Notes: generated by a model from the sequence alone, not told the origin. A stretch of 32,000 nt of DNA from Candidatus Saccharimonadota bacterium (GCA_039920285.1 JBDSDX010000001.1:150001-182000), one strand, 5' to 3'; shown: positions 4,582 to 31,419, counted from the stretch's first letter. Made by a program: numbers and translations.

Positions 4582-5210
4582 TGACAGATAAAATAGGTAT
4601 TCTTGGAGCAGGTGGTCAAGCTGATGAAGTTACCTCATTTTTGCGTGATACCGAAATAGCATTTTACGCAATTTCAGAAGCATATGTAGATACATCTAAT
4701 GAGAAGCAAATTGATATTGCAAAACCGAATGAAGAACAAAAGCTTACCCCTGTGATAGTTGCTATCGGGGCTCCTGAAGTTCGTCGGAGTATGGCCGCTC
4801 AATGGTCTGGAGCTGCGTTCACATCTGTACAGTCCGATGCATCATACATCGACAAGACAGCTGTTATCGATGCGGGATGTATTATTGCTCCTGGAGCGAT
4901 AATCACCACTAATGTTCATATCGGTGCCCACAGCATTGTGAATGTAGGTGCCACAATTAGTCATGATTCTAAAATCGGTGATTTTGTTACTATTGGGCCT
5001 GGTGCTCATCTTGGTGGCCATGTTGTATTGGGTGATGGAGTCTTTGTGGGAATCGGTGCAAGTATTAGTAATGACATAAAAATTGCAAAAGGTTCTGTTA
5101 TTGGCGCTGGAGCTGTTGTTATCAAAGACGTACTTGTCGAAAATAGTGTCGTTGTAGGAATTCCTGCAAAGGTCATCAAGCAGAATGAAGGATGGCTTCG
5201 TGAAATATAG
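4581..5210 (+). CDS. Sugar N-acetyltransferase, NeuD/PglD/VioB family (left-handed beta-helix)
   Basis: 209 aa. N-terminal GILGAGGQADEV Rossmann-like subdomain, followed by hexapeptide repeats IGAHSIVNVGATISHDSKIGDFVTIGPGAHLGGHVVLGDGVFVGIGASI. Confidence 0.85.
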   Translation: MTDKIGILGAGGQADEVTSFLRDTEIAFYAISEAYVDTSNEKQIDIAKPNEEQKLTPVIVAIGAPEVRRSMAAQWSGAAFTSVQSDASYIDKTAVIDAGCIIAPGAIITTNVHIGAHSIVNVGATISHDSKIGDFVTIGPGAHLGGHVVLGDGVFVGIGASISNDIKIAKGSVIGAGAVVIKDVLVENSVVVGIPAKVIKQNEGWLREI

Positions 5211-6315
5211 AATACCCTTTATTCGACCAGAATTCCCTTCATCAGAAGAGATGATTGAGGATTATCGTGCGATACTTGATTCGAACTGGTACACAAATTT
5301 CGGTCCCTATGAACTAGACTTATCACAAAAGGTAGCTGAATATGTGGGCCAAGATATCTATGCGACAACTGTTGCGAACTGTACACTTGGGCTCGATTTA
5401 GCAATTATTGCACTTTTTGATAAGAGTAACGGCAATAAGGTATTGGTCCCGTCATTCACGTTTGCAGCGGGCCCTGAAATGTTAATACGAAATGATTTTG
5501 AACCAGTATTGCTTGATGTTGAAGCTGATACTTGGCATATGAGCATTAAACAGGCTGAAGAAATTCTTTCTAATGATAAAGAGATTGCAGGCATACTGCT
5601 CTGTAATAGTTTCGGTGTTGGGAATCCAAAAATTGAGCAGTGGGAATTACTTGCGAAAAAATATAACAAGAAGCTTATCATTGATAGTGCTGCAGGATTT
5701 GGGTCACGTTATACAAGTGATGAAATAATTGGTGGAAGGGGTGATTGTGAAGTATTTTCTTTGCACGCAACGAAGCCTTTTGCTGTCGGTGAAGGCGGAC
5801 TTGTCACTAGTAGAGACCAGACGCTAATTAAGAAAATTCGTGTATTGCAGAACTTTGGATTTGAAGGTGATAGAACGGTACACACTATCGGAACAAATGC
5901 GAAAATGCAGGAATTTAATTGTGCAATCGGGATTCGTCAGCTGAGTAAATTACAGACAAGAATAAGTGGTAGACAGCAAAAACTCGCGACCTACAAAGCA
6001 CATCTCAAAGATTTTGAGTTTCAGCCGAATGACACTCTTTCTACTGTTCCTTTTGTGTCGGTACTTGTTCCCGAAGGATATGATGCTGATTTCTCTCAAC
6101 AATCACTCCTCGATGCATCAATTGAAGCTCGGCGTTACTATACACCCGCACTTCATCTCCACAGCGCTATTAAGGAGCGATCTTCAATCCCAGGACCACT
6201 AACAGTGACCGAGTCTATGAGTGATAGAATTATTTCTCTTCCACTTTTAAACGATATGACTGATGAAGATATTATTGGTGTTTGTGAAACGTTAATAAAA
6301 ACTAGGAAGGCATAA
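5185..6315 (+). CDS. DegT/DnrJ/EryC1/StrS-family PLP-dependent sugar aminotransferase
   Basis: 376 aa. IPFIRPEF...NFGPYELDL and the FSLHATKPFAVGEGG (PLP lysine) motifs. An alternative GTG start at 5200 has AAGGA 7 nt upstream. The gene overlaps the acetyltransferase 3' end. Confidence 0.85.
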   Translation: MKDGFVKYRIPFIRPEFPSSEEMIEDYRAILDSNWYTNFGPYELDLSQKVAEYVGQDIYATTVANCTLGLDLAIIALFDKSNGNKVLVPSFTFAAGPEMLIRNDFEPVLLDVEADTWHMSIKQAEEILSNDKEIAGILLCNSFGVGNPKIEQWELLAKKYNKKLIIDSAAGFGSRYTSDEIIGGRGDCEVFSLHATKPFAVGEGGLVTSRDQTLIKKIRVLQNFGFEGDRTVHTIGTNAKMQEFNCAIGIRQLSKLQTRISGRQQKLATYKAHLKDFEFQPNDTLSTVPFVSVLVPEGYDADFSQQSLLDASIEARRYYTPALHLHSAIKERSSIPGPLTVTESMSDRIISLPLLNDMTDEDIIGVCETLIKTRKA

Positions 6316-14909: not shown

Positions 14910-15033
14910 AGCATATTTTCCTATAACCATATTTAACCATAAATAGTATGGGTAATGCAACCTCCTAACGCTTTAAGCAGGACAAAATAGAAGGTCCTGA
15001 TAGCCTGTTGAGAATTTGCTTGGTATGCTTTTA

Positions 15034-15894
15034 TTATTTCAATAAATCGTACAAGTACTTGCCATACCCAGATTTTGCCAAAGGTTCAGCGAGCTTTCGA
15101 AGTTGGTCGTCATTAATAAATCCTTGACGCCAAGCTATCTCCTCAACGGAGCCGATGTTTAGACCTGTTCGGTTTTGGACAACACGAATATAGTCAGCGG
15201 CATCAACCATTGAATCAATAGTCCCTGTATCAAGCCAGACTGACCCACGATCCATAATACGAACCTGTAGTTTCTTCTGTTTGAGATACGCATCCATAAC
15301 TTCGGTGATTTCAATCTCACCGCGTGCACTTGGTTTGATTGACTTAGCAATTTCGGGTACATCGTTGTCGAAGAAATAAAGTCCGACAAGCGCGTAGTCA
15401 GATTTTGGATTTGTTGGCTTTTCTTCAACTGAAAGAACGGTCATATTATCGTCAAAATCAACAACACCGTAACGCTCGGGGTCAGCGACTTGGTACGCAA
15501 AAACAATACCACCATCGGGATCTGTGCATTTCTTTAGTTCATTGCCAAAGTCTGAGCCGTGAAATAAGTTATCGCCAAGAATGAGCGCAACCTTATCGTT
15601 ACCAATAAATTCTTCACCGATAATAAATGCATCAGCTAGTCCGCGAGGCTCTTCTTGAACTGCATAGGTAAAGCTACAGCCGTACCGAGATCCGTCACCA
15701 AGTAGTCGTACGAACCCCTCGTTATCATGCGGTGTGGTAATGATAAGGATGTCGTTTATACCAGCACCAAGAAGCGTCGATATCGGATAATAAATCATCG
15801 GTTTATCATAGATAGGCATTAACTGCTTACTAATTCCCATGGTTATAGGATACAAACGCGTACCCGAGCCACCCGCTAAAATTATTCCCTTCAT
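15034..15894 (-). CDS. rmlA: Glucose-1-phosphate thymidylyltransferase
   Basis: 286 aa. [18 protein letters not shown]...[15 protein letters not shown]...LGDNLF is the canonical RmlA/RfbA pattern. The start overlaps the yfhO-like stop (ATGA). Confidence 0.95.
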
Positions 15895-18254
15895 AACTCT
15901 TTTTTTCCTCTGTCTTTACGACGTAAGTTCAGTGTGTATAGTAGCAAAATTATTGTTATTAATACAGTCACACCAGATAGGATAAAACCTATTGTGGCGA
16001 TGGCTGGTCGATAGTTTAGTGTAATCACATGATGGCCGCTAGGTATATCTAATGCCGAGAAGTCATAATACGCTGACTGTAAAGTGAGTGTGCTACCATC
16101 GTCAATCTGTACCGACCAGTCTTTGTTAAATGTCTGTGCAATGAAAACCAATCCTCCTGTCGACGACTGAGTCGTGATCGTTAGCGAGTTTGCAGTACGG
16201 GTATACGTTAATGATGAAGATGTATCTGCGATAGAGTGATTACCTTCAATGAGTACTTCGTGATAGCCAACTGAACCAGATTTAATTGTCTCCAGTTGAG
16301 CATCTGTTGATTCGTTATTTATTGAACTTGCGAAGTATACGGATGGTGTTGGGACATCTGCTTTGTATACGTTTGGAGATACCTCACGATAACCATCTTT
16401 GGGAGCTTTATTTATGGTGTATTCGACACCTAGGTTTTTGAAAAGCGTCGGTTTATCAACAGTATTTATGATGAGTGCATTATCGCGGTATACGTGCGGG
16501 GTAGAATTTGGATAGTTAATAGCCTGGGTTCTGGGAAGTAACGAAGTCGAGTAGAGAGAGTCGTATCCACTTAAAAGCGACACACCGTAGAGTCCTGATT
16601 CTTGTGGACCTATGTAATCAACAATTGTCGGATCCTTATTAGACTGGGAGGAAATGTACGCCAATTGAGCATTTCCAGCATGCAGTATTGAGTCTGATAC
16701 GATCGGTTGAGAAACTCTATAGAGAGCCCAACCTTGTACAAGCGAGACGGCGACGATTGTAAGTACGAAGAACAGGCGGGCAAATTTTACACGACGTAGG
16801 AGTACATAGAAGATAAGTGTCGCACAAATAATGAAATAGTACGCGTGGTAATAATTTTTACTGAGGTTGTCGACGATACTCAAATTTATCTGGGCGAGAG
16901 ATAGTGCAATGGTTGCAAGAAGTGGAATAACAAGTACGAATGCGGGATATTTGTTTTTTGATTGTAACTTCCCTTTTCTAAAAATAAACTTTATGACAAA
17001 GTCTAATCCAAAAGCCGCAAGAACTGCCATAGCAAGGAGGCCTATAGGTAAGAAATAGTCTGACGCAAGCGACTTAAGAGTTGGGGATAGAATATTAAGT
17101 ATAGTTTGTGGAAAGTCGTTCCACTTCCAAAAAGCGCCGAGTATAAACAGGAATATAAAGAGATGTATTACCGTCGGCTTGCGAGCTTTTATTAAAGTGG
17201 TAACTGCAATGATCATCGCTATGATGAAGAAGATACCGGGAATTTGACCGACATGAAGATCGCGTCTTGTCGTTGTTCCTATGGTTGTAGGACCTGAAGC
17301 GAGAGGGTATGCTTGTGGTATTTTGGCGATTTCACTTAATCGATCACTCCAGTTTGCTGGTGGTTCGGCTGTTATGGTGGCCGATCTGTGGCTAGCTGGC
17401 GTTTGTGTTATAAGGGGGCCTAGTTGGGCAAAGCCTATCATAAGAGCGAGTATAGCGGCGCCGGAAATAAACAAGATGTTTTTTCCTCTTAACTTATTAA
17501 AGAGTATGTCGAATAGTACTGCCACTGCCAGTACGATGTATGGGAGAAGAGCAATTTGGATATGACCCATGAAAATGACTAATCCCAAAGTAAGGCTTAA
17601 GAGGACGAGATTATGGTCGAGAGTTTTTCTCGACTCTCGCCATCGGTAATACAGATATAAGACAAACGGGATTGAAGCCATCGGAATCGCAATGACTCCG
17701 TAGAGAGACCAGAATATAGAAAATGGCGCAAGGCTGTAAGCAACCGCTCCAAGGAAACCTGCACCGGCGGATGTTTTTAGCTGACGAAGTAAAAGATAAG
17801 TACAGCTTGCCATAAGGAATATACCGATAATCACGATGATGTTTTGATATGTATAAATACTTACAAAGAAGAGCAAGACATTAAACGGTGATAGAACTGT
17901 GTTTATTGGATTTGCGAGGAATACATCACCCCCAAAAGATTTTGTATTCCATAGAGGTATTTCAGCGTGTTTAACGAGAGAGTCTTTAATATACTGTCTG
18001 AACGGAAGCATTTGCTGATTGACGTCTGAGGGGATTTTAGCAATGACACTGCCAGTAGTGTTTGAAGTATCCCAGCCACTTAAAATGTTGAGAGGAGCGA
18101 TAATACTATGCGTTACCGAGACATAGATCATGAAAGGGAGGGTAATGATGAGGCCTACAAGAGCTGCTTGCGTTAGTTTGTTCTTTGCGACAAAATTAGT
18201 AAACTTCTTTATGAAGTTGTTTAGAATAGGTAATGTGTTTTTACCAGGCTTCAT
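15891..18254 (-). CDS. YfhO-like polytopic membrane glycosyltransferase (GT-C fold family)
   Basis: 787 aa with many TM segments. N-terminal [36 protein letters not shown]. The C-terminal extracytoplasmic region followed by a last TM resembles YfhO ([18 protein letters not shown]...[15 protein letters not shown]). Confidence 0.7.
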
Positions 18255-19293
18255 CGGTCTCAGTAAGAGGATATCGTTTTTGATTAATCTTAGATTTCAG
18301 CACCAAGGCTTTCGACTCGATGAAATGCCATGATAAGGCTGCTGTGGCAAGTGTTAACACTAAACTAAGAACGAACATTTTATATGGATTTGGTGTATGA
18401 GTTACAGACTCGATCATTTGTTGAATTGGAAATGCATAGATGTATGTACCGTACGAGAGATCGCCTATACGTTCACTTAAGCTACTAAATAAACTATGCC
18501 TACCAATACTGAAGATTGCGTACGCGAGGAATAGAGATGCGAAGAGTGGCGCAAACTTAGGGAAGAGTAATGTTGCGCCAATAAATACAACAAGTGAGAC
18601 AACTCCTAATTTTGTATTAAGTTTGATCTTTTTTTCATATTTATGCATCATTACACCAGAGAAGTAGACTAGCGCGAATATGAGGAACTGACTAAAGGTA
18701 AGATAGAATAGCGATTGATTAAGTATAGGGTTTCCATTTATGAGGACGACTAGTACTGCGATAAATAAGAATACCCAGAAGTAGAGTGGTTTAATCCTCT
18801 TGTAGAGCTTCAAAACCCCAATAATAGCAACGGCGATGTACATAGTAAACTCATAGCAGAGTGTCCATATCGATCCATTTACTGCACCTGGATAAACGTT
18901 GTCGGTGAAGACCCCTGGCAGTGTAAACGTATTATTGTAGAGGAAGATATTATTAAGATAGCCCCATGTTTCTTGACTGAGTAAGAATTGTTTCAATGGG
19001 ACGGTCGTGAAAAATAGCCCGGTAACGGCAATTGTCACCAGTATGGCGACTATAAGACCAGGAAAAATACGTAGTGCACGTTTTGCAAAGAAAACATTAA
19101 ATCGAGGGTATTGCTCCCATGATTTTGAAATGAGATACCCACTAAGAATAAAGAAAATCCATACTCCAACAGCGCCGAGGCTTACGAGTTTTGCCGCTGG
19201 TTCTGGCTGACCTGTGAGCGCGAATGAGTGACTAAAGATAACAAGAATAGCGGCGAATAGCCTAATGGCATCAAATGAGTTTTTCCTAGTCAT
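18241..19293 (-). CDS. Acyltransferase family 3 membrane protein (putative glycan O-acetyltransferase)
   Basis: FDAIRLFAAILVIFSHSF motif and about 10 TM segments. I prefer ATG 19293 (MTRKNSFDAIR...) because a TATAAT box sits 7 nt upstream. The ORF-track start at 19416 would overlap aclB by about 85 nt. Confidence 0.8.
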   Translation of the reverse strand: MTRKNSFDAIRLFAAILVIFSHSFALTGQPEPAAKLVSLGAVGVWIFFILSGYLISKSWEQYPRFNVFFAKRALRIFPGLIVAILVTIAVTGLFFTTVPLKQFLLSQETWGYLNNIFLYNNTFTLPGVFTDNVYPGAVNGSIWTLCYEFTMYIAVAIIGVLKLYKRIKPLYFWVFLFIAVLVVLINGNPILNQSLFYLTFSQFLIFALVYFSGVMMHKYEKKIKLNTKLGVVSLVVFIGATLLFPKFAPLFASLFLAYAIFSIGRHSLFSSLSERIGDLSYGTYIYAFPIQQMIESVTHTPNPYKMFVLSLVLTLATAALSWHFIESKALVLKSKINQKRYPLTETDEAW

Positions 19294-19314: not shown

Positions 19315-19323
19315 TGCTAAAAT
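19315..19323 (+). promoter_or_regulatory. Extended -10 TGCTAAAAT, 7 nt upstream of the aclB ATG (leaderless geometry)
   Basis: The plus strand reads gaTGCTAAAATaagggacATG, with the ATG at 19331. Confidence 0.5.
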
Positions 19324-19330
19324 AAGGGAC

Positions 19331-20500
19331 ATGCCAAGGAGAAAAATTTCTGAGTTCCGTTCCAAAACTATGGTTAACGACGTATTGGGTATGACGTATG
19401 TTGGGTGGAGTGTCAATAGTAGTACAAATCTTGACGTGATTACTGGTTATGATACATATGTTGTTAAAGTTGACCAGGCCGTAAAGGGAAGGTTTAAAAA
19501 AGGCCTCGTAGTCCTTGATGTATCAAAATCAAAACTCAATGATGCAGTAAAGACACTGAGAGATCAGGGTTACGAATTACTGCTTGTTGAACCTTTTTTC
19601 GAACATGAAGATCTTCAGGAGCGTTACATTGCGATAACTCAAAGTAGAGATGGTATTGCAGTGAGTATTAGTGCGAACGGTGGTGTTGATGTCGAAAAGA
19701 ATAAGGATAGTATTCACGCCTACACTATTAGTGATGAACTCGATTGGAACCTATTATCTAAAGAGTCGCAATTCTCTGTTGAACAATTAAAAAATCTTGT
19801 TGAGCTTTTTACGGCCGAGTACCTTACGTTTCTTGAGATCAATCCTTATGTTGTCACTACTAGCGCAGTGCAAATCCTAGACGTAGCTATGGAAGTTGAT
19901 GATGCTGGACTACATTTTGTGAACCTATGGACCGAGAAGGATATTCGTAACCCTCGATCGATGAATAGTTATACACAAGAGGACGTGGTTAAATCGCTTG
20001 ATCGCGAATCCTCCTCTTCGTTTAACTTGAGCGTCCTCAATCCAAACGGTTCGATTTTCCTCCTTCTTTCAGGCGGTGGTGCCAGTGTGGTTATTGCAGA
20101 TGAGATTTACAACTTGGGACTGGGTGACCAACTCGCTAATTACGGCGAGTATAGTGGCAACCCGAATACTCACGAAACATATCTATATGCTCAGCAACTA
20201 CTTTCATTAATTGCCGGTTCATCGGCGCCAAGGAAAGTGTTATTTATTGGTGGCGCTGCGGCGAATTTCACAGATATAGCTAACACTTTTGCTGGGATTA
20301 TTCTTGCGATCGATGAGCAAGCCGAATCACTTTGTAATGAAGGTGTAAAAGTGTACGTTAGACGCGGCGGGCCTCGCCAAAAGATTGGGTTAGCAAGAAT
20401 TGAAAAGACATTGAAGGAGCATGATTTATTTGGTGGTGTATATGATCCTACGACGTCAATTAGCGATGCCGTGAAGATTGCTTTAACGGAGCTTGAATGA
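19331..20500 (+). CDS. aclB: ATP-citrate lyase, beta (small) subunit: ATP-grasp plus citrate-binding domain
   Basis: 389 aa from ATG 19331 (MPRRKISEFRSK...). Blocks colinear with the human ACLY N-terminal half as I recall it: VVKVDQAVKGRFKKGLV, LLVEPFFEH, GGVDVEKN, YLTFLEINPYVVT, LSVLNPNGSIFLLLSGGGASVV, LANYGEYSGNPN, FIGGAAANFTDIANTF, VYVRRGGP. The stop overlaps the aclA ATG (ATGA). Confidence 0.9.
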   Translation: MPRRKISEFRSKTMVNDVLGMTYVGWSVNSSTNLDVITGYDTYVVKVDQAVKGRFKKGLVVLDVSKSKLNDAVKTLRDQGYELLLVEPFFEHEDLQERYIAITQSRDGIAVSISANGGVDVEKNKDSIHAYTISDELDWNLLSKESQFSVEQLKNLVELFTAEYLTFLEINPYVVTTSAVQILDVAMEVDDAGLHFVNLWTEKDIRNPRSMNSYTQEDVVKSLDRESSSSFNLSVLNPNGSIFLLLSGGGASVVIADEIYNLGLGDQLANYGEYSGNPNTHETYLYAQQLLSLIAGSSAPRKVLFIGGAAANFTDIANTFAGIILAIDEQAESLCNEGVKVYVRRGGPRQKIGLARIEKTLKEHDLFGGVYDPTTSISDAVKIALTELE

Positions 20501-22269
20501 TGATATCTATTGAGTCACTACGAAACAAGACAGCTCGAATTATTAGCCTAGGATCACATGCCGGAATTATTCAGTCAATCTTAGATTATGATTATCTTGT
20601 CGGAAAACAAACCCCAAGCGTCATTGCAATTGTCGCGAACGGACGCAAACAAGAGCGCTATTTTTGGGGCCAGAATGAGGTTATTATTCCGGTGGTTCCA
20701 AACCTAGAGCTACTAACTGATGCGCAGTTGAATGAATGTACGGCTATCATCAATGTTCAGTCGGCGCGGCGAGTACTATCTTCTACAAAGCGGGCATTAG
20801 ACCTATTGCCTAATATTTCTGTACTGACGATATTCGCAGAACAGACGCCGGAACAGCATGCACTTGAACTTATAAAAATAGCAGCTACGAGAGATATTCT
20901 TATGGTCGGACCTTCATCGGTGGGGTTGCTAATTCCCGGCGTGTTGAAACTAGGTGCAATTGGGGGGACGCAACATGAACAGCTTTCATCAGCGGGCATT
21001 TTTGATGCCGGCGATACTGCTGTCGTGTCAACATCGGGGGGTATCGTGAACGAACTGATTCTAACTGTCACAGGATCAGGGTTAGGTATTTCTTTTGCTA
21101 TAGCTCTTGGCGGTGACAGATTCCCAATAACGAGTCCGATTGATGCGATGCGACTTGCTGAGAGTGATCCTCTGACGAAACGAATAGTGTTCTTCGGCGA
21201 ACTTGGTGGAACTGACGAATATGAGATAGCGAAAAGCATCAAATCAGGCGAGATCACAAAGCAAGTCGTTGTCTACATTGCCGGTACAGTTGCTGAGCTG
21301 TTCGATAATCCACCGCAGTTTGGCCATGCAAAAGCTATCGCACAGATTCAAGACGAATCGGCTTCTGCTAAGAAAAATGTCTTATCATTAGCTGGAGCTA
21401 CTATCTGTAATACGTTTGCAGATATATCAAAAATACTTAGAGATGAGAAAGAGAAGCCACATCATATGACACAAAATTCAATTGGTCCACGTAAACACGC
21501 TATGATTGTCAGTCATATATCGGGCGACAAGGACAATGAACTCCAACTCATTGGAGGTGAACTACTCGACACCGTTAACCGTAATAGCATTGCATCGTTG
21601 ACGTTATCTCTGTTATTGGGGAAGCAAGTTGAGTCAGATAAGGCGGTCCAATTTGTTGATTTCGTACTGCGACTATTAGTTGACCACGGTCCGTATGTAT
21701 CGGGTGCATTAAATACGATTGTCGCAGCGCGTGCTGGCAAGGATCTTGTATCAAGTGTCGTCGCTGGATTATTGACGATTGGTCCACGCTTTGGAGGAGC
21801 AATTAATAGCGCAGGTGAGAGCTGGCTCCGGGGTGTAACAGAGGGAGTAACTGCTGAAGACTTTGTTGAGTCGTTTAAGGATGCGGGAGGGGTTATATCT
21901 GGTATTGGACACAAAAAATATCGAACCGATCTTCCTGACCCACGTGTCGATGCTTTGAAGAAATACGGAGGAAACTCTAACGGTGATCGTTACTTAAAGT
22001 TCGCGCTTGAGGTAGAGGCGGTGACAACCGCAAAGAAGTCAAACCTTATTCTTAACGTTGATGGCGTTATTGCAGCGATTATGTTAGATATTCTTGAGTC
22101 TGAATTGGGATATACTAAGCAGCAATTAGTTGAGTTGGTTGAAATAGAATTCTTCAATGCACTATTTGTCTTAAGTCGATCAGTTGGCTTTACGGCGCAT
22201 TATCTTGATCAGAAACGACATGATGAAGGCCTGCTACGATTATCTGAAGATGACGTACGATATTTTTAG
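20497..22269 (+). CDS. aclA: ATP-citrate lyase, alpha (large) subunit: CoA-binding/CoA-ligase domains plus citryl-CoA lyase (citrate-synthase-like) domain
   Basis: 590 aa. Contains SILDYDYLVGKQTPSV, MVGPSSVGLLIPG, VSTSGGIVNEL, ALGGDRFP, GELGGTDEY, the phosphohistidine loop QFGHAKA, then VDHGPYVSGALNTIVAARAGKDLVSSVVAGLLTIGPRFGGA, GIGHKKY, PDPRV, LILNVDG, FVLSRSVGFTAHYLDQKR. All are colinear with ACLY/AclA. Confidence 0.9.
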   Translation: MMISIESLRNKTARIISLGSHAGIIQSILDYDYLVGKQTPSVIAIVANGRKQERYFWGQNEVIIPVVPNLELLTDAQLNECTAIINVQSARRVLSSTKRALDLLPNISVLTIFAEQTPEQHALELIKIAATRDILMVGPSSVGLLIPGVLKLGAIGGTQHEQLSSAGIFDAGDTAVVSTSGGIVNELILTVTGSGLGISFAIALGGDRFPITSPIDAMRLAESDPLTKRIVFFGELGGTDEYEIAKSIKSGEITKQVVVYIAGTVAELFDNPPQFGHAKAIAQIQDESASAKKNVLSLAGATICNTFADISKILRDEKEKPHHMTQNSIGPRKHAMIVSHISGDKDNELQLIGGELLDTVNRNSIASLTLSLLLGKQVESDKAVQFVDFVLRLLVDHGPYVSGALNTIVAARAGKDLVSSVVAGLLTIGPRFGGAINSAGESWLRGVTEGVTAEDFVESFKDAGGVISGIGHKKYRTDLPDPRVDALKKYGGNSNGDRYLKFALEVEAVTTAKKSNLILNVDGVIAAIMLDILESELGYTKQQLVELVEIEFFNALFVLSRSVGFTAHYLDQKRHDEGLLRLSEDDVRYF

Positions 22270-23687
22270 TTAGTTGTTGAAAGGTATGATGTTAGTGCCT
22301 CATCCCAGTTTCTAGGGTGGTAACCTGTTGATTGAATTTTCTTTAGATCAAGAGTGCTTCGTTGGGGACGAGGTGAAACCGGTACGCCGTCTTTTTGTTT
22401 CTTTTCAACAAATGCTTCAGTCGTTTGTGTACTCACACGTTTTGGATCGTTGCCTGTTAGCTCAAACACTTTTTGTGCGAGCTCATACCAACTAACAACA
22501 GGTCCGTCATTTGTAAGATTATAAATGCCATACATTGCCTTGATGTCGAGAAGATGTCTAATTCCTTTTACAATATCTTCTGTAAAGCTTGGACGACCAA
22601 ATTGATCATCGACAACGTCAGGGTTAATGCCATCTTCAGCAAGTTTTTTCATCGTCCTCACGAAATTATTTCCATCGCCGATAACCCATGATGTTCGAAT
22701 AATGTAGTGTTTCGGTGAAGATGCGACGGCAATATCACCCGCCGCTTTTGATTGGCCGTATACCCCAAGCGGGGAATACTCCTCTGTTTCAGTATGAGTG
22801 TCTTGTGTACCGTCGAAAACATAATCGCTTGAAATATGAATGAGTGTCAGATCATTTTCAGTTGCGAGTTTTGAGAGATTTTTTAGAGCAGATGCGTTTA
22901 TGTTCCAGGCATCTTTACGACCCTCATTTGTTTCTGCACTATCCACTTTCGTATACGCACCCGCGTTAATAATAGTGCTATATTGTCGCCAGTTTCGGTC
23001 ACCCCATGTACTTTGGTCTGAGATATCAAAGCTAGATCGATCAACGAATTCGGCTCCTGAAAACTCAGACTGTAACGCCCTACCGAGTTGACCATTAGCT
23101 CCAGTGATAAGGATCTTACGGGGTTCTATTCGCGTGATATCGGCGAGGAATGGATGGTTCTTATCCTTTTCTGAAAGTTCAGCCTCGTCTAATGGGATAG
23201 GCCAATCAATAGCAATGGTTGTATCTGCAAGATTAAGAAAAGCATAATTCTCACCACCAAGTACCCAGTGATCATTAACGAGGTATGAGTAGACTGTCTC
23301 GTCTTCGAGTGCTTGAAAGGCATTTCCAACACCACGTGGTACGAAGATAGATTTACTCGGGTCAATCTCTAGCGTGAACGTCTGACCATAGCTATCTCCT
23401 TTACGAAGATCGGTCCATGCACCAAAGATTTTTCCTGCCGCCACGGACACATATTTATCCCATGGCTCTGCGTGAATTCCTCGTGTCGTTCCACGCATTG
23501 CGTTGAAGGATATATTGTTCTGAAGAGGTTTAAAATCGGTAAGTCCTAGTGCAACCATTTTTTCGCGTTGCCAGTTTTCTTTAAACCAGCCACGATTGTC
23601 ACCTAAGACAGAGAGATCAAGCCAAACGAGGCCGGGTATATTCGTTTGGTGGAGTTGTAATTCTTTACCATACTCGATATCCGACAT
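22266..23687 (-). CDS. rmlCD: Fused dTDP-4-dehydrorhamnose 3,5-epimerase / dTDP-4-dehydrorhamnose reductase
   Basis: True start is ATG 23687 (MSDIEYGKELQ...), 1 nt after the rmlB stop. The N-terminal cupin carries NRGWFKENWQREKM (RmlC). The C-terminal SDR carries KILITGANGQLGRAL and YGQSKAAGD (RmlD). The upstream 71 codons of the ORF-track call lie inside rmlB. Confidence 0.9.
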   Translation of the reverse strand: MSDIEYGKELQLHQTNIPGLVWLDLSVLGDNRGWFKENWQREKMVALGLTDFKPLQNNISFNAMRGTTRGIHAEPWDKYVSVAAGKIFGAWTDLRKGDSYGQTFTLEIDPSKSIFVPRGVGNAFQALEDETVYSYLVNDHWVLGGENYAFLNLADTTIAIDWPIPLDEAELSEKDKNHPFLADITRIEPRKILITGANGQLGRALQSEFSGAEFVDRSSFDISDQSTWGDRNWRQYSTIINAGAYTKVDSAETNEGRKDAWNINASALKNLSKLATENDLTLIHISSDYVFDGTQDTHTETEEYSPLGVYGQSKAAGDIAVASSPKHYIIRTSWVIGDGNNFVRTMKKLAEDGINPDVVDDQFGRPSFTEDIVKGIRHLLDIKAMYGIYNLTNDGPVVSWYELAQKVFELTGNDPKRVSTQTTEAFVEKKQKDGVPVSPRPQRSTLDLKKIQSTGYHPRNWDEALTSYLSTTN

Positions 23688-23688
23688 G

Positions 23689-24690
<1,002 letters not shown>

Positions 24691-25195: not shown

Positions 25196-26548
25196 TTACG
25201 ATTCGATAAGATTAGTCACTGAACTGACTAATGTATTGAGCGTATCTTGATCTTTTGCCTCAGCGTTTAATCGGATGACTGGCTCGGTGTTACTGGCGCG
25301 AACATTAAACCAACTGCCGTTTTCAAATTCGACGGTCAATCCATCAAGCTCATCTTGCTTTCCATCGCTAAACGTCTCTTTTAATTTTGCGAGGACTGCC
25401 TGTGTGTCTGGGACGACAAAGTTTGTTTCATCAATAATTGGATAGCGAGTGTAGAGTTCTCGGAGCTCAGAAAGTTTCTTCCCAGTGAGGCCAGCGGCAT
25501 AAAGTCCGATGACGGCCGCAATGATTCCAGAGTCGGCGTAGTAGTTGTCGCGGAAGTAGAAGTGTCCCGAAACCTCACCACCGAATGGTGCATTTGTTTC
25601 ACGCATGATTTGTTTGATGAATGAGTGGCCGACGCGTGTACGAATCGCTTCGCCACCATGCTCTGTAATGACTTCGGGTACTGTGTGACTTGAGCGCAGG
25701 TCATAGAGAATCTTTGATCCTGGGTGAAGTGTAAGGAAGTAATCACCGAGCAGTGCGTTCATGATATTGCCCGTCAGGACGACACCAGTTTCATCAACAA
25801 GAAAGGCACGGTCACCGTCACCGTCGAACGCGATACCGCCCGCAAGGTTCTTTTCCTTGATGAGTGCGATAAGGTCGGCGAGTGTTTCAAACTTGAGTGG
25901 ATTTGCTTCGTGATTTGGGAAGGTGCCATCAAGTTCAAAGTAGAGTTCTTCAACATCCCACGGTACGTATGGTTCGAGTTCAGGGAATATCTTTCCAGCC
26001 ATTCCGTTTCCAGCGTCAACAGCAATGTGGAGGGGAGCTAATTTAGTAGCATCAATAAATGAAAGCACGTGTTCAATCCAGGCTTCAGAAACATCTTTCG
26101 TTTCAACTATTCCTTTTGTTTCTGCTGCAGAAAAATCGTTAGCGATTGCCAGGTCACGAACATCGAAGAGTCCAGATTCTTGACCGACAGGTTTTGCATC
26201 TTCACGACAAAACTTGATGCCGTTGTATTCACCAGGGTTATGACTTGCGGTAATCATGACACCACCGGCGAGCTTTAAGCTACCGGTTGCGAAGTAGATC
26301 ATATCACTCGTTACTTGGTCGATGTCGATAACATTGCGGCCTTGCTCGGTGAGACCAGCAATCAATGCATCAGCGAGTTCGGCAGAATCGGGACGCATGT
26401 CACGACCAACTACAACAGCACCATCTTCAGGCAACCATTGGGCAAAAGCTTGGCCGATAGTTTTTACTGATTCAACAGTCAGTTCTGTGCTGACTTTGCC
26501 GCGGACGTCATATGCTTTAAAAATGTTCTGTAGGTTTTCTGTATTCAT
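25196..26548 (-). CDS. Phosphomannomutase/phosphoglucomutase (alpha-D-phosphohexomutase family)
   Basis: 450 aa. Active-site loop GVMITASHNPGEYNGIK, metal loop FDGDGDR, and GEVSGH sugar-binding loop. A strong SD (AGGAGGA) lies 5 nt upstream of the ATG. Confidence 0.9.
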   Translation of the reverse strand: MNTENLQNIFKAYDVRGKVSTELTVESVKTIGQAFAQWLPEDGAVVVGRDMRPDSAELADALIAGLTEQGRNVIDIDQVTSDMIYFATGSLKLAGGVMITASHNPGEYNGIKFCREDAKPVGQESGLFDVRDLAIANDFSAAETKGIVETKDVSEAWIEHVLSFIDATKLAPLHIAVDAGNGMAGKIFPELEPYVPWDVEELYFELDGTFPNHEANPLKFETLADLIALIKEKNLAGGIAFDGDGDRAFLVDETGVVLTGNIMNALLGDYFLTLHPGSKILYDLRSSHTVPEVITEHGGEAIRTRVGHSFIKQIMRETNAPFGGEVSGHFYFRDNYYADSGIIAAVIGLYAAGLTGKKLSELRELYTRYPIIDETNFVVPDTQAVLAKLKETFSDGKQDELDGLTVEFENGSWFNVRASNTEPVIRLNAEAKDQDTLNTLVSSVTNLIES

Positions 26549-26565: not shown

Positions 26566-27693
26566 TTATATGTGCCGTTGCATCCGAACAGCGTCTTCAA
26601 CAATTTTCTTCATCCGTGTATCAAACAGACTTTTATCAAATCGTTTTGATTTACGGTGTAGCGTGGCAGGTAAGAACTTCATCGTACTCGCCCGTTCCAT
26701 CGCTGCCAGTAATCCATCGATAGATTGCTTCTTGAAGAGCACCCCAGTTTCGCCGTCTTGAACGATATCGAGTGCGCCACCTTTGGCGTACGCAATGACT
26801 GGTGTGCCAGCAGCAAGTGCTTCGACGGCAACAATGCCAAAGTCCTCTTCATTTGGAAATAGAACGGCTGATGATCCTTGGACGGCTTTTTCTAGGGATT
26901 TGTCACTAATGCGTCCGGGGAAGTGGATGGTTGGTCCTGCTAATTTTTTCAGTCGAGCGGTATCTGGACCACTCCCGACAATAGTCAGCTCTGCACCAAT
27001 TTTGTTACACGCTTCAATAGCGAGATCGAATCGCTTGTACGGCACGTGACGGCCCCAGGCAATGTAGCCACTGCGTGGACCAGTTGGTGGTGGGGTAAAG
27101 CGCTCAACGTCGACTGGCGGGTGCACGACGTTGCTTGAGCGGCCATAGTACTTCTTGATTCGTTCTTGTGTAATGGTGGAATTGGCAATGAGAACATCAA
27201 TGTCTTTAATTGAGGCTACATCTTTCTTCCGCATTTGCTTTACGAAGAATGGGATGACGGGTCGGATAAGTGGGGTGAGTAGGCCAAAGCGGAATTCTTT
27301 TTTAAATTCTTCGTAATGACTCCAGTAATACCGAATAGGTGTATGAATATAGGCGATATGAATTTGACCAGGACGGGTTTTGCGAACTGCCTTCGCTTCG
27401 GCGCTACTACTACTGATAATGATGTCGAACTCCGAGAGATCGAGCGTGCGAAAGGCATGGGCACGAAGGACTGGCCACAGGATGTGTTTATAGCGAAGGA
27501 ATTTTGGAAGTTTCTTTTGGAGATATGTTGTGCGAACATCAATCGAATGAAACGCAGGCAAGGCGGCTTTGTTGTAGACAGAAGTATAGATAGGAGCTTT
27601 TGGGAAAAGTTTGTGTAGTTCTAGGACAACCGGTTCAGCACCACCCATATTGGTGAGCCAGTCGTGAACGATGGCGATTTTTGGTGCTGGCAC
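26566..27693 (-). CDS. GT4-family (GT-B) glycosyltransferase
   Basis: 375 aa with a GTG start overlapping the upstream stop (TAGTG). KIAIVHDWLTNMGGAE N-terminus and EDFGIVAVEALAAGTPVIA (EX7E region). Confidence 0.85.
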   Translation of the reverse strand: MPAPKIAIVHDWLTNMGGAEPVVLELHKLFPKAPIYTSVYNKAALPAFHSIDVRTTYLQKKLPKFLRYKHILWPVLRAHAFRTLDLSEFDIIISSSSAEAKAVRKTRPGQIHIAYIHTPIRYYWSHYEEFKKEFRFGLLTPLIRPVIPFFVKQMRKKDVASIKDIDVLIANSTITQERIKKYYGRSSNVVHPPVDVERFTPPPTGPRSGYIAWGRHVPYKRFDLAIEACNKIGAELTIVGSGPDTARLKKLAGPTIHFPGRISDKSLEKAVQGSSAVLFPNEEDFGIVAVEALAAGTPVIAYAKGGALDIVQDGETGVLFKKQSIDGLLAAMERASTMKFLPATLHRKSKRFDKSLFDTRMKKIVEDAVRMQRHI

Positions 27694-29141
27694 TATTTGG
27701 CTCCGCGACCTTTGAAGACAACGAGGACCGTCTTGAAGAGGATTTTAATATCCAACCAGAAGGTCCAGTTTTGGGCATAGAAGAGTTCAAGTTCAATACG
27801 TTCTTCGAAGTTTAGTTCACTACGGCCTGATACTTGCCATAGGCCAGTCACGCCAGATTTTACGCTATGGAGGAGTGATGCCTTGCCACGAACGAAGCGA
27901 ACTTCTTGGGGCAAGATCGGGCGAGGGCCGACAAGGCTGAGGTGGCCGATGAGGACGTTGAAGACTTGGGGTAATTCGTCGATTGATGTTTTACGGAGGA
28001 ATCGTCCGAAAGCATTCACGCGCGGATCATTTTCAACTTTTTGATTTTTTTCATATTCCTTTGCGAGGTCTTCACGGCCCATCGCGCGGAACTCAGCAGC
28101 GTCATCAACGTTACGAGAGTCGAAGCCTTTCAGGTGAGTCATTGAACGGAATTTCAGCAGTCCCACCGGAAGTGAGAAACGAGACAAGCGATCATTCACG
28201 TAGAATATCGTGCCTGGGTTTAAGAGCTTTTGTAAGACCATAATCACGATGAAAAGAGGCAAGAGAATGATTGAGAAAATGAGTGCAACGATGAAGTCAA
28301 AGATTCGTTTCAAGATGGCACCCCAGCCAACGAGCGGCGTTTGGTAGACGGTAATCATCGGATAGCCGAGGAAGACATCGACGGTATTTTTGCCTGAATA
28401 GAACTCGGCTTCACCAGGAATAAAGCTGTAGTCGATATGATGTGATTGGGCAGCACTCAAAACTTTTTGATTACGTTCAGAATTTTCATAGAGGTCTGTT
28501 TGGATGATACCGGTGATTTCGTTTAGCTCGATGTCCTTGAGAGCGGCTTCAACCATTGAATAGTGATGTGCGCTAAATTCTTCGGGCAATATCTTTTTTG
28601 GTCCTGCAATCGCAACGATATCATACCCAGTACTACTGGTATCGGCAATATTGCGAGCGATATCACGTGTGGCACTTGATGAGCCGATGAGTAACACTCG
28701 TTTGATGCCGCGCCCGTAACGATAACGGTAGGTGCGAATAGCTCGTAGGATTTCACGTTCGATGACAATTAAGATGAATGAACCAGCCAGTGCGTAGGCA
28801 GCGACGAGCCTGGCAGGGAAGATGGTTTTGTCGCTAACGTATTGCCAACCGATAACGAGGAGAATGCCAAGAAATGAACCAATAGCGATCTTTGCCCATT
28901 CAACGAGGCGACGATTGTAGGTGTCGGGACGGTATAGGCCGACAATTGCGAAGATTAAAATCCAAAAAGGAACAATAAGTAAAAACACGAGGAGGTAATC
29001 GTAGGCATAGATATTTTGTAAGAGTGGACGGGGGTCGTATTGGACACGGGCGACGTAGGCGAGAACGAATGTCGCAATCAGAACCAATGCGTCAATCAGG
29101 ATGAGGACTAAGCTATAGAGCTTGCTGTTTCGGTGTTGCAT
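27693..29141 (-). CDS. Polyprenyl-phosphate sugar-1-phosphate transferase (WbaP/WcaJ-type initiating phosphoglycosyltransferase)
   Basis: 482 aa. N-terminal TM bundle, a central Rossmann-like region, and a C-terminal bacterial sugar-transferase domain (LVGPRPILPQEV...KSGVTGLWQVSGRSELNFEERIELELFYAQNWTFWLDIKILFKTV). Confidence 0.9.
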   Translation of the reverse strand: MQHRNSKLYSLVLILIDALVLIATFVLAYVARVQYDPRPLLQNIYAYDYLLVFLLIVPFWILIFAIVGLYRPDTYNRRLVEWAKIAIGSFLGILLVIGWQYVSDKTIFPARLVAAYALAGSFILIVIEREILRAIRTYRYRYGRGIKRVLLIGSSSATRDIARNIADTSSTGYDIVAIAGPKKILPEEFSAHHYSMVEAALKDIELNEITGIIQTDLYENSERNQKVLSAAQSHHIDYSFIPGEAEFYSGKNTVDVFLGYPMITVYQTPLVGWGAILKRIFDFIVALIFSIILLPLFIVIMVLQKLLNPGTIFYVNDRLSRFSLPVGLLKFRSMTHLKGFDSRNVDDAAEFRAMGREDLAKEYEKNQKVENDPRVNAFGRFLRKTSIDELPQVFNVLIGHLSLVGPRPILPQEVRFVRGKASLLHSVKSGVTGLWQVSGRSELNFEERIELELFYAQNWTFWLDIKILFKTVLVVFKGRGAK

Positions 29142-29187: not shown

Positions 29188-30519
29188 ATGGCTACAAAGA
29201 TACAAAAACTGGGGGTTTTGGACAAGGTCTTTGTCGGTATCCTTTTGGCCGTCTTCGGCGGAATTGTCTTACATGCGCCACTGAGTGTTGGATTTTCAAC
29301 CTTATTTCCGAGTGCTGAAGTGCTTATTAAGTCGTGGAAAGAGATATTGCTGATCATTGCGGCGATTATTGCAGTAGTGATACTGACGCAGAAGAAACGA
29401 TGGAGTCTTATTAAGAGTCCTGTGGTTGTGTTGATTGCGATCTATGCGTTGTTGCACATTCTGCTGATTCCTGTATTTGCGGTTACATCTGATGTCGTAC
29501 TGGCTGGCCTCGCCATCGACCTACGGTATCTCTTATTCTTCGTCTTGGTGTACATTGCTATTAGTATGTATCCGCAGCTGCGACGTGTCTTCGTCGGGAC
29601 GTTCTTGGCCGGAGCGTTGGTGGTTGTCACGTTTGCGATACTTCAAGTCACTGTCTTGCCGCATGACGTATTGAAATACATTGGGTATGGCCATGGGACA
29701 ATTGCACCGTACCTCACCGTTGATGAGAATCCAGAATTCATTCGTATTAGTAGTACCCTGCGTGGTCCGAATCCGCTCGGTGCCTATGCATTGATTGTGT
29801 TAAGTTTGCTGCTCGCCTTTGGACTACGCGGTCATCACCGTCAATTCAAACGACCAATGTTTATTGTTGGACTCTTGGGAATTGGTGGAGTGGTGGCACT
29901 GTGGGCAAGCTACTCACGAAGCGCAGTCGTCGCGACCATTATCGCAATCGTATTACTCCTCTTTATAACGGCTGGTCGCCGTATATCGAAGTGGGCTTGG
30001 ATTAGTATGGTGATCGCCGTGCTCGCGATTGGCGGTACGATCATTGCCTCTCGAAACACTTATTTCGTCTCAAATGTGTTGCTCCATGAAAATGCGACAA
30101 CTGGTGCAGCGATTAATTCGAATGAAGGTCACGTCAACTCTTTGTCTGATGGGTTGGATCGTATGGTCCACCAACCGCTGGGCGGGGGAATTGGCAGCAC
30201 GGGATCGGCGTCGTTATTTGGAAATCAGCCATTGATAATTGAAAACCAGTATCTTTTTATTGCTCATGAAGCTGGCTGGGTTGGGTTAGTGCTCTTCCTT
30301 GTCATCACCTGGAAGATTATGAGAATACTGTGGGTGCGACGAGCAGATTGGCTCGCCCTAGGGGTATTTGCTAGTGGTGTCGGACTATTGATTATTGGAT
30401 TACTCTTACCTGTTTTGGCTGATGATACAGTGTCATTAATATGGTGGGGATTAGCAGCAATAGTGATTGGAGGAGTCAATGAGCGAACGATCAACAAAAC
30501 GACAAAAAGAACTGCTTGA
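29188..30519 (+). CDS. O-antigen ligase / Wzy_C-family polytopic membrane protein
   Basis: 443 aa with about 11-12 TM segments. SYSRSAVVATIIAIVLL motif and a periplasmic loop followed by ENQYLFIAHEAGWVGLVLFL, typical of the WaaL/O-antigen polymerase family. Confidence 0.75.
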   Translation: MATKIQKLGVLDKVFVGILLAVFGGIVLHAPLSVGFSTLFPSAEVLIKSWKEILLIIAAIIAVVILTQKKRWSLIKSPVVVLIAIYALLHILLIPVFAVTSDVVLAGLAIDLRYLLFFVLVYIAISMYPQLRRVFVGTFLAGALVVVTFAILQVTVLPHDVLKYIGYGHGTIAPYLTVDENPEFIRISSTLRGPNPLGAYALIVLSLLLAFGLRGHHRQFKRPMFIVGLLGIGGVVALWASYSRSAVVATIIAIVLLLFITAGRRISKWAWISMVIAVLAIGGTIIASRNTYFVSNVLLHENATTGAAINSNEGHVNSLSDGLDRMVHQPLGGGIGSTGSASLFGNQPLIIENQYLFIAHEAGWVGLVLFLVITWKIMRILWVRRADWLALGVFASGVGLLIIGLLLPVLADDTVSLIWWGLAAIVIGGVNERTINKTTKRTA

Positions 30520-30907
30520 TTTCGTTGATGCATTTATTCAGCAGTATGGCTACGGTCCTAGCTACCGAGAAATTATGAATGCGCTGAATTATAAGTCAGT
30601 TTCGACGGTCGCTATTCATATTGATAACCTCATCACTAAAGGATACTTACGAAAACGAGATAATTCAGCTCGTTCACTCGGAGTGGTCACTACGCAGTTT
30701 ACTGGTGGTGATGCGAAGTCGAAAGGTCCAACTGCCTCGCAAGAGAAATGGTTGGTGAGTGCAATTAACGAACGTTTTGATCGGTATGCCAGCACCCCAA
30801 ACCAGATGACACTCGATGAGCTGTACGTCCTTATTGGGACGCTAAAAATTCTTGGACTCGACGATGCGCATGAGTCAACCAAAGCACGTCTCGGCAAACT
30901 TCGATAA
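30479..30907 (+). CDS. LexA N-terminal (winged-helix) DNA-binding domain protein lacking the S24 peptidase domain
   Basis: ATG 30479 is preceded by GGAGGAG. MSERSTKRQKELLDFVDAFIQQYGYGPSYREIMNALNYKSVSTVAIHIDNLITKGYLRKRDNSARSL aligns with the LexA DNA-binding domain. The remaining approx. 70 aa is helical with no Ser/Lys peptidase motifs. The 5' end overlaps the ligase-like gene by 41 nt. Confidence 0.7.
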   Translation: MSERSTKRQKELLDFVDAFIQQYGYGPSYREIMNALNYKSVSTVAIHIDNLITKGYLRKRDNSARSLGVVTTQFTGGDAKSKGPTASQEKWLVSAINERFDRYASTPNQMTLDELYVLIGTLKILGLDDAHESTKARLGKLR

Positions 30908-31344: not shown

Positions 31345-31419
31345 TCCGACGTAGCTCAATGGTGGAGCAAGAAGCTGTTAACTTCGAGGCTGCTGGTTCG
31401 AGTCCAGCCGTCGGAGCCA
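31345..31419 (+). tRNA. tRNA-Asn (anticodon GTT), CCA encoded
   Basis: Hand-folded cloverleaf. Acceptor TCCGACG/CGTCGGA, D arm GCTC-AATGGTG-GAGC, anticodon arm AGAAG-CTGTTAA-CTTCG (A27/G43 mismatch), variable AGGCT, T arm GCTGG-TTCGAGT-CCAGC, discriminator G, CCA. Confidence 0.9.

Follow-up and report, generated by a model that had tools for sequence, protein, structure and literature searches.

An intact two-subunit ATP-citrate lyase adjoining envelope-glycan genes in Saccharibacteria and its possible role in supplying acetyl-CoA

A stretch of DNA of 32,000 nucleotides from a Candidatus Saccharimonadota bacterium (GCA_039920285.1, JBDSDX010000001.1:150001-182000; the whole stretch is hereafter called the window) carries two adjoining genes, aclB and aclA, which, judged by their sequences, encode a genuine and intact heteromeric ATP-citrate lyase (ACL). 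In related genomes the aclBA pair adjoins genes for acetyl-CoA-dependent acyltransferases and for hexosamine or MurNAc synthesis, and it does so recurrently and in a position-specific manner. We consider it probable that this ACL works anabolically and outside the reductive tricarboxylic acid (rTCA) cycle, and that it supplies acetyl-CoA from external citrate for the N- and O-acetylation of envelope sugars. Saccharibacteria (TM7) belong to the candidate phyla radiation (CPR) and are tiny host-dependent epibionts. Peptidoglycan and acetylated surface glycans, which they are believed to make, call for acetyl-CoA, yet according to genome studies no route to it is apparent; an intact ACL beside the envelope genes that consume acetyl-CoA offers a concrete answer for the lineages that carry it.

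The two genes are open reading frames (ORFs) of the same direction on the + strand. The frame of the first ORF opens at 19265, and alignment with 14 orthologues places the start of aclB at the ATG at 19331 (MPRRK...); the start at 19315 given in the original prediction lies 16 nt upstream of this ATG and out of frame, a minor error. Gene aclB (19331..20500, +) encodes the ACL beta subunit of 389 aa, and aclA (20497..22269, +) encodes the alpha subunit of 590 aa; both assignments rest on Pfam matches and PDB alignments, together with the orthologue-fixed start for aclB and residue conservation for aclA. The genes share the ATGA stop/start overlap that had been taken as a sign of translational coupling (20497..20500, +, read off the sequence), in which the ATG covers 20497-20499 and the TGA covers 20498-20500, and overlaps or gaps of at most 3 nt recur at the aclB-aclA junctions of orthologous loci. 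Database gene calls begin aclA at the second ATG, with the 589-aa form (P0001) on record on a 5.3 kb contig, which is why an exact database look-up of the window AclA is empty. A scan for promoters and terminators around aclBA gave fewer matches than in shuffled sequence and is uninformative on transcription units.

AclB combines a trimmed ATP-grasp domain with a citrate-binding domain. The Pfam model Citrate_bind matches at 179 bits. Citrate_synth_N, which represents the ACL ATP-grasp domain, passes its cut-off of 83 only narrowly, at 83.9 bits, owing to the shortening of this domain. This shortening is the sole structural peculiarity of the enzyme; the orthologue alignment shows AclB to lack four insertions that the archaeal homologue L009 has. 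In AclB, the ATP-grasp motifs VVKVDQ..K.R.KKG, LVEPF, LEINP and LDVAMEVDD can be aligned with human ACLY and are kept in the 14 orthologues. The citrate and ATP motifs VVKVDQAVKGRFKKG, LEINPY, SGGGASV, ANYGEYSG (encoded at 20135-20158), ANFT and VRRGGP are found in AclB, and its motifs are conserved across the orthologous loci. The citrate ligands are also retained, corresponding to human G309 (in EYSG), N346 and T348 (in ANFT), and R379 (in VRRGGP). One relative departs from this pattern: in the AclB of locus L006 (L006:8838-10004), GNFGENSG replaces the ANYGEYSG of all others and LLNSGGSS the LLSGGGAS of others, and its citrate site may be degenerate or altered.

AclA joins two parts in one chain: the CoA-binding and CoA-ligase domains, which carry the phosphohistidine, and a citryl-CoA lyase module of the citrate-synthase-like type. 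It is matched by Pfam Ligase_CoA (45 bits) and Citrate_synt (79 bits, residues 356-581), and residues 12-316, the CoA-binding region included, align to human ACLY 496-799. The Pfam set expected beforehand was thus recovered for Citrate_bind, Ligase_CoA and Citrate_synt, while ATP-grasp_2 stayed below threshold in AclB and the CoA_binding model found no match in AclA at E <= 0.01. The phosphohistidine, His277 in QFGHAKA, is encoded at 21325..21327 (+) and equals human H760, and the catalytic aspartate of the lyase module, Asp522 in NVDG, is encoded at 22060..22062 (+) and equals human D1026. In the printed PDB alignments, His397, His472, Arg483, Arg561 and Arg581 equal human H900, H975, R986, R1065 and R1085. 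All motifs quoted in the original prediction are present, including QFGHAKA, ANYGEYSG in AclB, and GIGHKKY...PDPRV, which holds His472 and Arg483. The seven catalytic residues of AclA are invariant in 120 close Saccharibacteria homologues and in 10 more distant CPR-clade homologues, and more than 100 homologues retain 66-72% identity over the full length, which fits purifying selection; the 120 best database matches span 66-82% identity.

Comparisons with PDB chains give the same identity. AclA scores 362 bits with human ACLY, 351 bits with Methanothrix ACLY-B and 246 bits with 6hxj, against 85 bits with the alpha subunit of succinyl-CoA synthetase (SCS), 70 bits with citryl-CoA synthetase (CCS) and 58 bits with citryl-CoA lyase (CCL). 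AclB scores 193 bits with Methanothrix ACLY-A (6hxi_A), 180 bits with human ACLY and 131 bits with 6hxj, against 50 bits with CCS. The search table labels 6hxj only as ATP-citrate lyase subunits; we take it to be the Chlorobium limicola enzyme. Both subunits therefore score far higher with ACLs than with SCS or CCS/CCL, and the complete two-subunit ACL proposed earlier is borne out by the domain set, by the scores, and by the intact citrate-binding, phosphohistidine and lyase residues. Going by family membership, AclB would bind ATP, through its ATP-grasp domain, and citrate; His277 of AclA would be phosphorylated; citryl phosphate and then citryl-CoA would form; and the C-terminal module of AclA (His397, His472, Asp522 and three arginines) would split citryl-CoA into acetyl-CoA and oxaloacetate.

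Its sequence places the enzyme in a CPR lineage of ACLs. Wherever they are named, the 120 best AclA homologues belong to assemblies of Candidatus Saccharibacteria, Saccharimonadales or Patescibacteria, in agreement with the CPR-like host guessed from the window, and the contigs that bear AclA homologues reach 1.16 Mb. A representative protein library gave 144 clusters at E <= 1e-30 to AclA, and a neighbour-joining tree was built from 66 near-full-length sequences with 200 bootstraps, the tips being given their source names. The Saccharimonadales ACL sequences are monophyletic (200/200) and are nested, with one Dojkabacteria sequence and the group of loci L005-L007, in a clade that is likewise supported by 200/200. 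This CPR clade is distinct from the group of eukaryotes and Methanomicrobia (methanogens), and a Chlorobiaceae and Nitrospinae pair is set apart by a 200/200 split. Node support for the internal branching order of the CPR clade, and hence for its deeper origin, is low. The GC content of aclBA (0.432) matches that of the window (0.429), and this match, together with the monophyly of the Saccharimonadales enzymes, makes aclBA look native to the order and speaks against a recent horizontal acquisition.

Three further groups of sequences deserve mention. Loci L005, L006 and L007 (OZ246394.1, CAZGHS010000011.1 and CAZCYO010000003.1) come from metagenome-assembled genomes (MAGs) titled 'uncultured Gammaproteobacteria', one of which is a 1.61 Mb chromosome. 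Their aclBA are 48-53% identical to those of the window and fall inside the well-supported CPR clade, their neighbouring genes look CPR- or Gram-positive-like (class I lysyl-tRNA synthetase, VanW/G5, PEGA with SH3, GreA and MurB), and the Gammaproteobacteria label is probably wrong. An AclA homologue from a Candidatus Norongarragalinales archaeon of the DPANN (P0137) branches close to the outer CPR groups, and it seems that ACL is retained, in the absence of a TCA cycle, by small-genome episymbionts in both domains. Metagenomic contigs also yield a large clade of ACLY-like single-chain fusions of about 900-1080 aa (P0141-P0166), which is distinct from the eukaryote cluster that holds the fungal sequence P0131.

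The genes around aclBA were compared over loci drawn from species genomes (a single-protein scan, 10 loci), from the contigs of database homologues, and from an alignment-based metagenome scan; dereplication of the CPR-clade loci at 90% AclA identity left 55 loci, to which the following position counts refer. An acyltransferase gene of the AT3 or GNAT family occupies the position directly upstream of aclB (-1) in 15 of the 40 visible cases, or 16 if the AT3 of the window is counted, and one more GNAT and one hexapeptide acyltransferase bring the total to about 18 of 40. AT3 or GNAT genes are found at -2 or -3 in three cases, and at none of the 124 visible positions from +1 to +3. Genes for GlmS, MurB or a phosphohexomutase (PGM) show the opposite distribution: they fill 22 of the 124 positions downstream and 1 of the 106 upstream. 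At least five unrelated groups are represented among the acyltransferases at -1 (AT3 clusters C2, C14 and C29, GNAT, and hexapeptide), which indicates repeated independent juxtaposition and not a single inherited arrangement.

The common order in Saccharimonadales is manC, AT3, aclB, aclA, glmS, a pair of GT4 and initiating-transferase genes, wzy and lexA. The stop codon of the AT3 gene overlaps the start of aclB by 1 nt in L015, L019 and L025, the gaps between aclA and glmS are 0-25 nt, and the identity of glmS is firm (736-747 bits, NCBIfam). The pair of GT4 and glycosylphosphotransferase genes lies within 10 kb of aclBA in L003, L004, L010, L011, L013, L015, L018 and L019, and Wzy_C and LexA genes are conserved beside aclBA in the same loci; these four genes are a conserved core beside aclBA in the order. 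The window is a rearranged version of this arrangement, in which rmlCD, rmlB, a small nucleotidyltransferase gene and a phosphohexomutase gene occupy the usual place of glmS, and the AT3 gene is of a different kind and divergent. In L020, whose AclA is 42% identical, one strand within a glycan cluster carries, in this order, the gene for a fusion of sugar 3-dehydrogenase and aminotransferase, that for a hexapeptide N-acetyltransferase, aclB, aclA and an epimerase gene. Locus L005, in which murB follows aclBA and an acetyl-CoA-yielding gene pair precedes it, likewise counts for the link to the envelope, and D-Ala-D-Ala ligase and Mur ligase genes are among the other neighbours of aclBA in CPR loci. 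In some Saccharimonadales loci (L015:15561-16709 and L025:5625-6776), aclA-glmS is followed, one or two genes on, by a polysaccharide deacetylase gene (Polysacc_deac_1), and acetylation and deacetylation functions are clustered there.

Published genome analyses supply the metabolic setting. Saccharibacteria are without pyruvate dehydrogenase (PDH) and pyruvate:ferredoxin oxidoreductase (PFOR), and their 'acetyl-CoA metabolism appears to be lacking' (PMC6031116). The phosphotransacetylase gene pta was not found in Saccharimonadia, though acetate kinase is there (PMC9166423), and Saccharibacteria have no complete TCA cycle, with malate dehydrogenase and D-lactate dehydrogenase present (PMC12592800). 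Without Pta, acetyl-CoA cannot reach ATP via acetate kinase, and its use must therefore be anabolic. The reported lack of PDH, PFOR, Pta and the TCA cycle, taken with neighbours that consume acetyl-CoA or act in a pathway that consumes it one step later, leads to the anabolic reading, in which ACL would convert citrate, ATP and CoA to acetyl-CoA as it does in the eukaryotic cytosol, and not within the rTCA cycle. The likely sinks would be the AT3 O-acyltransferases and the hexapeptide and GNAT N-acetyltransferases of envelope synthesis, with GlmU of the GlmS-GlmM-GlmU pathway, which leads to UDP-GlcNAc and UDP-MurNAc, as a putative further sink; oxaloacetate would presumably be reduced by the reported malate dehydrogenase or decarboxylated to pyruvate. 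That the citrate is scavenged from outside is an assumption. The acetyl-CoA supply put forward in the original prediction thus gains comparative backing from the non-orthologous acyltransferases upstream and from glmS, murB and phosphohexomutase genes downstream, while the role itself is what we infer from this setting, as are the direction in vivo, where the citrate comes from and which reactions use up the acetyl-CoA. We hold more tentatively, at a little under an even chance, that ACL is the only acetyl-CoA source in aclBA-positive Saccharibacteria and the wider CPR set and is transcriptionally wired to the envelope functions that spend acetyl-CoA (AT3, GNAT, hexapeptide and the GlmS route).

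Several observations weigh against the anabolic, envelope-directed role. The position counts over the 55 loci ignore kinship, and part of the Saccharimonadales gene order could be inherited synteny. Some loci (L003, L021 and L024) are without an acyltransferase or hexosamine neighbour; lexA lies upstream in L003 and L024, NUDIX and tRNA methyltransferase genes stand at L021, and genes for elongation factor G (EF-G) or GreA stand at several loci. Within the window, glmS is absent and the AT3 gene points away from aclB, so the operon argument leans on the relatives. GlmU was not found adjoining aclBA in the loci examined, and neither the window nor any of the fetched loci showed a citrate transporter. 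As a candidate for the missing GlmU, the manC-like gene ahead of AT3-aclBA was considered and rejected, as it scores 250 bits as mannose-1-phosphate guanylyltransferase and 38 bits as archaeal GlmU. In L005, tdh-like and kbl-like genes stand directly before aclBA, and murB follows. This pair (L005:6604-8822, on the same strand as aclB) scores 353 bits as L-threonine 3-dehydrogenase and 452 bits, against a cut-off of 460, as glycine C-acetyltransferase, and may be a second source of acetyl-CoA beside ACL, from threonine. An archaeal-type phosphoenolpyruvate (PEP) carboxylase gene lies three genes upstream of aclBA in L038 and L048 and could bear on oxaloacetate handling; in L038 (L038:379-1899, PEPcase_2 442 bits, with a homologue in L048) it is followed by genes for a dCTP deaminase and a 569-aa protein without a Pfam match. 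Finally, aclAB were found in 3 of 11 Saccharimonadia MAGs and hence are not universal (PMC12577380), and in one well-analysed Saccharibacteria genome a fumarate reductase subunit is the only TCA gene reported (PMC6031116). This patchiness of aclAB implies that other Saccharibacteria meet their acetyl needs otherwise, for example by GlcNAc salvage.

Some of these points would suit a general housekeeping role, in which citrate is split, oxaloacetate passes to pyruvate and lactate, acetyl-CoA serves any acetylation, and the glycan neighbours reflect synteny in compact genomes. The conserved gene order within Saccharimonadales, the unrelated neighbours at some loci (NUDIX, tRNA methyltransferase, EF-G and GreA), and the malate and D-lactate dehydrogenases reported for the group (PMC12592800) agree with such a role. 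We nevertheless regard it as unlikely, since five unrelated acyltransferase groups stand exactly at -1 and none at +1 to +3, since AT3 and aclB overlap at stop and start and the aclA-glmS gaps are very short, and since the use of acetyl-CoA must be anabolic without Pta.

It is also conceivable, with a distinctly smaller probability, that the enzyme runs in reverse and forms citrate, CoA and ATP from acetyl-CoA, oxaloacetate, ADP and Pi, so that thioester energy is saved as ATP or ACL acts as the sole citrate synthase. The ACL reaction is near equilibrium, which counts for this direction, as does the tdh/kbl pair directly ahead of aclBA in L005, which would produce acetyl-CoA; the PEP carboxylase of L038 and L048, which would make oxaloacetate, fits the reverse reaction equally well. 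However, no acetyl-CoA route and no citrate-using TCA cycle are reported for Saccharibacteria, the dominant neighbours of aclBA consume acetyl-CoA and do not produce it, and the reverse reaction would require stoichiometric oxaloacetate and the export of citrate.

Autotrophic CO2 fixation by the rTCA (Arnon-Buchanan) cycle is very improbable, although ACL is the textbook marker of this cycle and one survey files Saccharimonadia aclAB under it (PMC12577380). Genes for 2-oxoglutarate:ferredoxin oxidoreductase, fumarate reductase, PFOR, aconitase and isocitrate dehydrogenase were not found in the 32 kb window or in the flanks of about 60 related loci, and the earlier remark that no other rTCA gene is in view holds for all gene-like ORFs of at least 120 aa in the window. 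According to published analyses, Saccharibacteria have neither a TCA cycle nor PFOR or PDH (PMC12592800 and PMC6031116), the contigs are at most about 1.2 Mb, and the CPR clade is split from the Chlorobi and Nitrospinae enzymes with 200/200 bootstrap support. The routine scoring of aclA or aclB as a marker of rTCA carbon fixation is very likely wrong in CPR genomes.

We give almost no credence to the idea that aclBA do not encode an ACL at all but SCS, a CCS/CCL pair or an ACL-like enzyme for another substrate: the best named NCBIfam matches are indeed SCS subunits and CCL, in a collection that contains no ACL model, and the shortened ATP-grasp domain of AclB barely passes its Pfam cut-off, but the NCBIfam scores (44 against a cut-off of 375, 117 against 336, and 74 against 212 bits) lie three- to eight-fold under the cut-offs, the ACL-specific Citrate_bind reaches 179 bits, alpha subunit and lyase module form a single chain as they do in ACL, the PDB scores with ACL are 4-6 times those with SCS, CCS or CCL, and the citrate ligands (human G309, N346, T348 and R379) are conserved.

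The setting of aclBA in the window was annotated by scanning all gene-like ORFs of at least 120 aa with Pfam and selected ones with NCBIfam. The gene-like ORFs other than aclBA make up a polysaccharide locus, as expected from the envelope-glycan context described earlier. The AT3 membrane acyltransferase gene (18241..19293, -; Pfam Acyl_transf_3 93 bits), whose product presumably consumes acetyl-CoA, lies 37 bp from aclB in the divergent orientation originally noted, and hence is not co-transcribed with aclBA; L022 and the distant L060 each have a divergent AT3 gene next to aclB whose product is 62-63% identical to that of the window. On the other side, the dTDP-rhamnose genes lie beside aclA, again as originally described. 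A fused rmlC-rmlD gene (473 aa; 22266..23687, -; Pfam dTDP_sugar_isom and RmlD_sub_bind, with a 473-aa gene call on the identical contig L017) is convergent with aclA, the stop codons overlapping by 4 bp without intergenic space, and rmlB, of the dTDP-glucose 4,6-dehydratase type (23689..24687, -; Pfam GDP_Man_Dehyd and Epimerase), comes next. The rmlC-rmlD fusion recurs in L011 and L051, and the genes are separate in L013. An rmlA-like glucose-1-phosphate nucleotidyltransferase gene (15034..15894, -; Pfam NTP_transferase 240 bits) is 69-72% identical to the gene that adjoins rmlBCD in L011 and L013.

Beyond rmlB lie a phosphohexomutase gene (PMM/PGM or GlmM-like; 25196..26548, -), which has all four Pfam PGM_PMM domains and NCBIfam scores of 499 bits for PMM/PGM and 372 bits for archaeal-type GlmM, both under their cut-offs, then the genes for a GT4 glycosyltransferase and an initiating polyprenyl glycosylphosphotransferase (26566..29141, -; Pfam/NCBIfam), and then a gene of the Wzy_C type (O-antigen ligase/polymerase-like) and one for a LexA-type repressor (29188..30907, +; Pfam). 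The N-acetyltransferase gene of the original prediction (4581..5210, +) belongs to the NeuD/PglB/VioB family of hexapeptide sugar N-acetyltransferases, passing the TIGR03570 cut-off of 160.8 with 160.9 bits and matching Pfam Hexapep and PglD_N, and its product presumably also consumes acetyl-CoA. A DegT-type sugar aminotransferase gene (5185..6315, +; Pfam DegT_DnrJ_EryC1 263 bits) stands next to it, and the aminotransferase would produce the amino sugar for this enzyme to acetylate. GT2 and GT4 glycosyltransferases, a Wzm/Wzt-type ABC exporter and a methyltransferase are also among the glycan genes of the window, which further carries a YfhO-like membrane protein and a small cytidylyl/adenylyltransferase. 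Two ORFs in the middle of the glycan locus remain without clear family: one of 808 aa (11941-14367, -) has no Pfam match and a 41% identical relative only in L004, and one of 196 aa (14370-14960, -) has weak Pfam matches only. At the end of the window, a tRNA-Asn(GTT) gene (31345-31419, +) is overlapped by a TTG-start ORF of 203 aa (31378-31989, -) without a Pfam match, which is probably not a gene or has its true start further downstream.

The presence of ACL in this lineage is less unexpected than first thought. NCBI and JGI records already label homologue genes as encoding ATP-citrate synthase or lyase, and a 2025 survey found aclAB enriched in Saccharimonadia and listed them under the 'Arnon-Buchanan cycle' (PMC12577380). 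A 2022 preprint described CPR and DPANN citrate-cleavage homologues as mis-annotated as SCS or citrate synthase, and a 2025 study of eukaryotic central metabolism placed the eukaryotic ACL beside DPANN and Thermoplasmatota and did not discuss CPR. In open-access papers and preprints we found no account of what ACL does in Saccharibacteria or CPR, or of its gene neighbourhood there, beyond passing mentions of the enzyme, and its functional wiring to envelope genes appears to be undescribed so far. The enzyme is thus an ordinary one, and the value lies in the physiological reading and not in a new kind of molecule. This reading points to citrate as a metabolite that epibionts may draw from their hosts; if it is true, wall and glycan synthesis in these epibionts depends on host or environmental citrate, ACL plays in these bacteria the part that ACLY has in the eukaryotic cytosol, and aclAB in CPR, and probably DPANN, genomes have been wrongly counted as carbon-fixation potential.

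Among known systems, human and other eukaryotic ACLY (PDB 6hxh and 6poe) share with the window enzyme the reaction, the domain order, and the catalytic and citrate-binding residues (362 bits for AclA), and eukaryotic ACLY, like the role proposed for the CPR enzyme, supplies acetyl-CoA anabolically outside a carbon-fixation cycle. Eukaryotic ACLY is a single chain of about 1100 aa, whereas the window enzyme has two subunits with a shorter ATP-grasp domain and belongs to a separate clade, and the eukaryotic sinks are lipid synthesis and histone acetylation where the proposed sink here is the acetylation of envelope sugars. The closest solved two-subunit enzyme is ACLY-A/ACLY-B of Methanothrix (Methanosaeta; PDB 6hxi and 6znw), which aligns end to end (193/351 bits) and whose host is likewise a non-rTCA organism; it is archaeal and groups in the neighbour-joining tree with the eukaryote-type clade and not with the CPR clade, and the Methanomicrobia locus L009 is only 36% identical. 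We know of no glycan-gene context for the Methanothrix enzyme. The AclB/AclA of green sulfur bacteria (6hxj; Chlorobiaceae cluster P0183) have the same two subunits, the same order of aclB before aclA and the same chemistry, but they are far more distant (246/131 bits for AclA/AclB, with the Chlorobiaceae beyond the 200/200 split) and serve a complete autotrophic rTCA cycle, which is reported to be absent from Saccharibacteria. CCS/CCL (PDB 6hxq and 6hxp) carry out the same two chemical steps with homologous domains; their lyase is a separate protein without the ACL-type fusion, and the window enzyme, in which the two are joined, scores only 50-70 bits with them.

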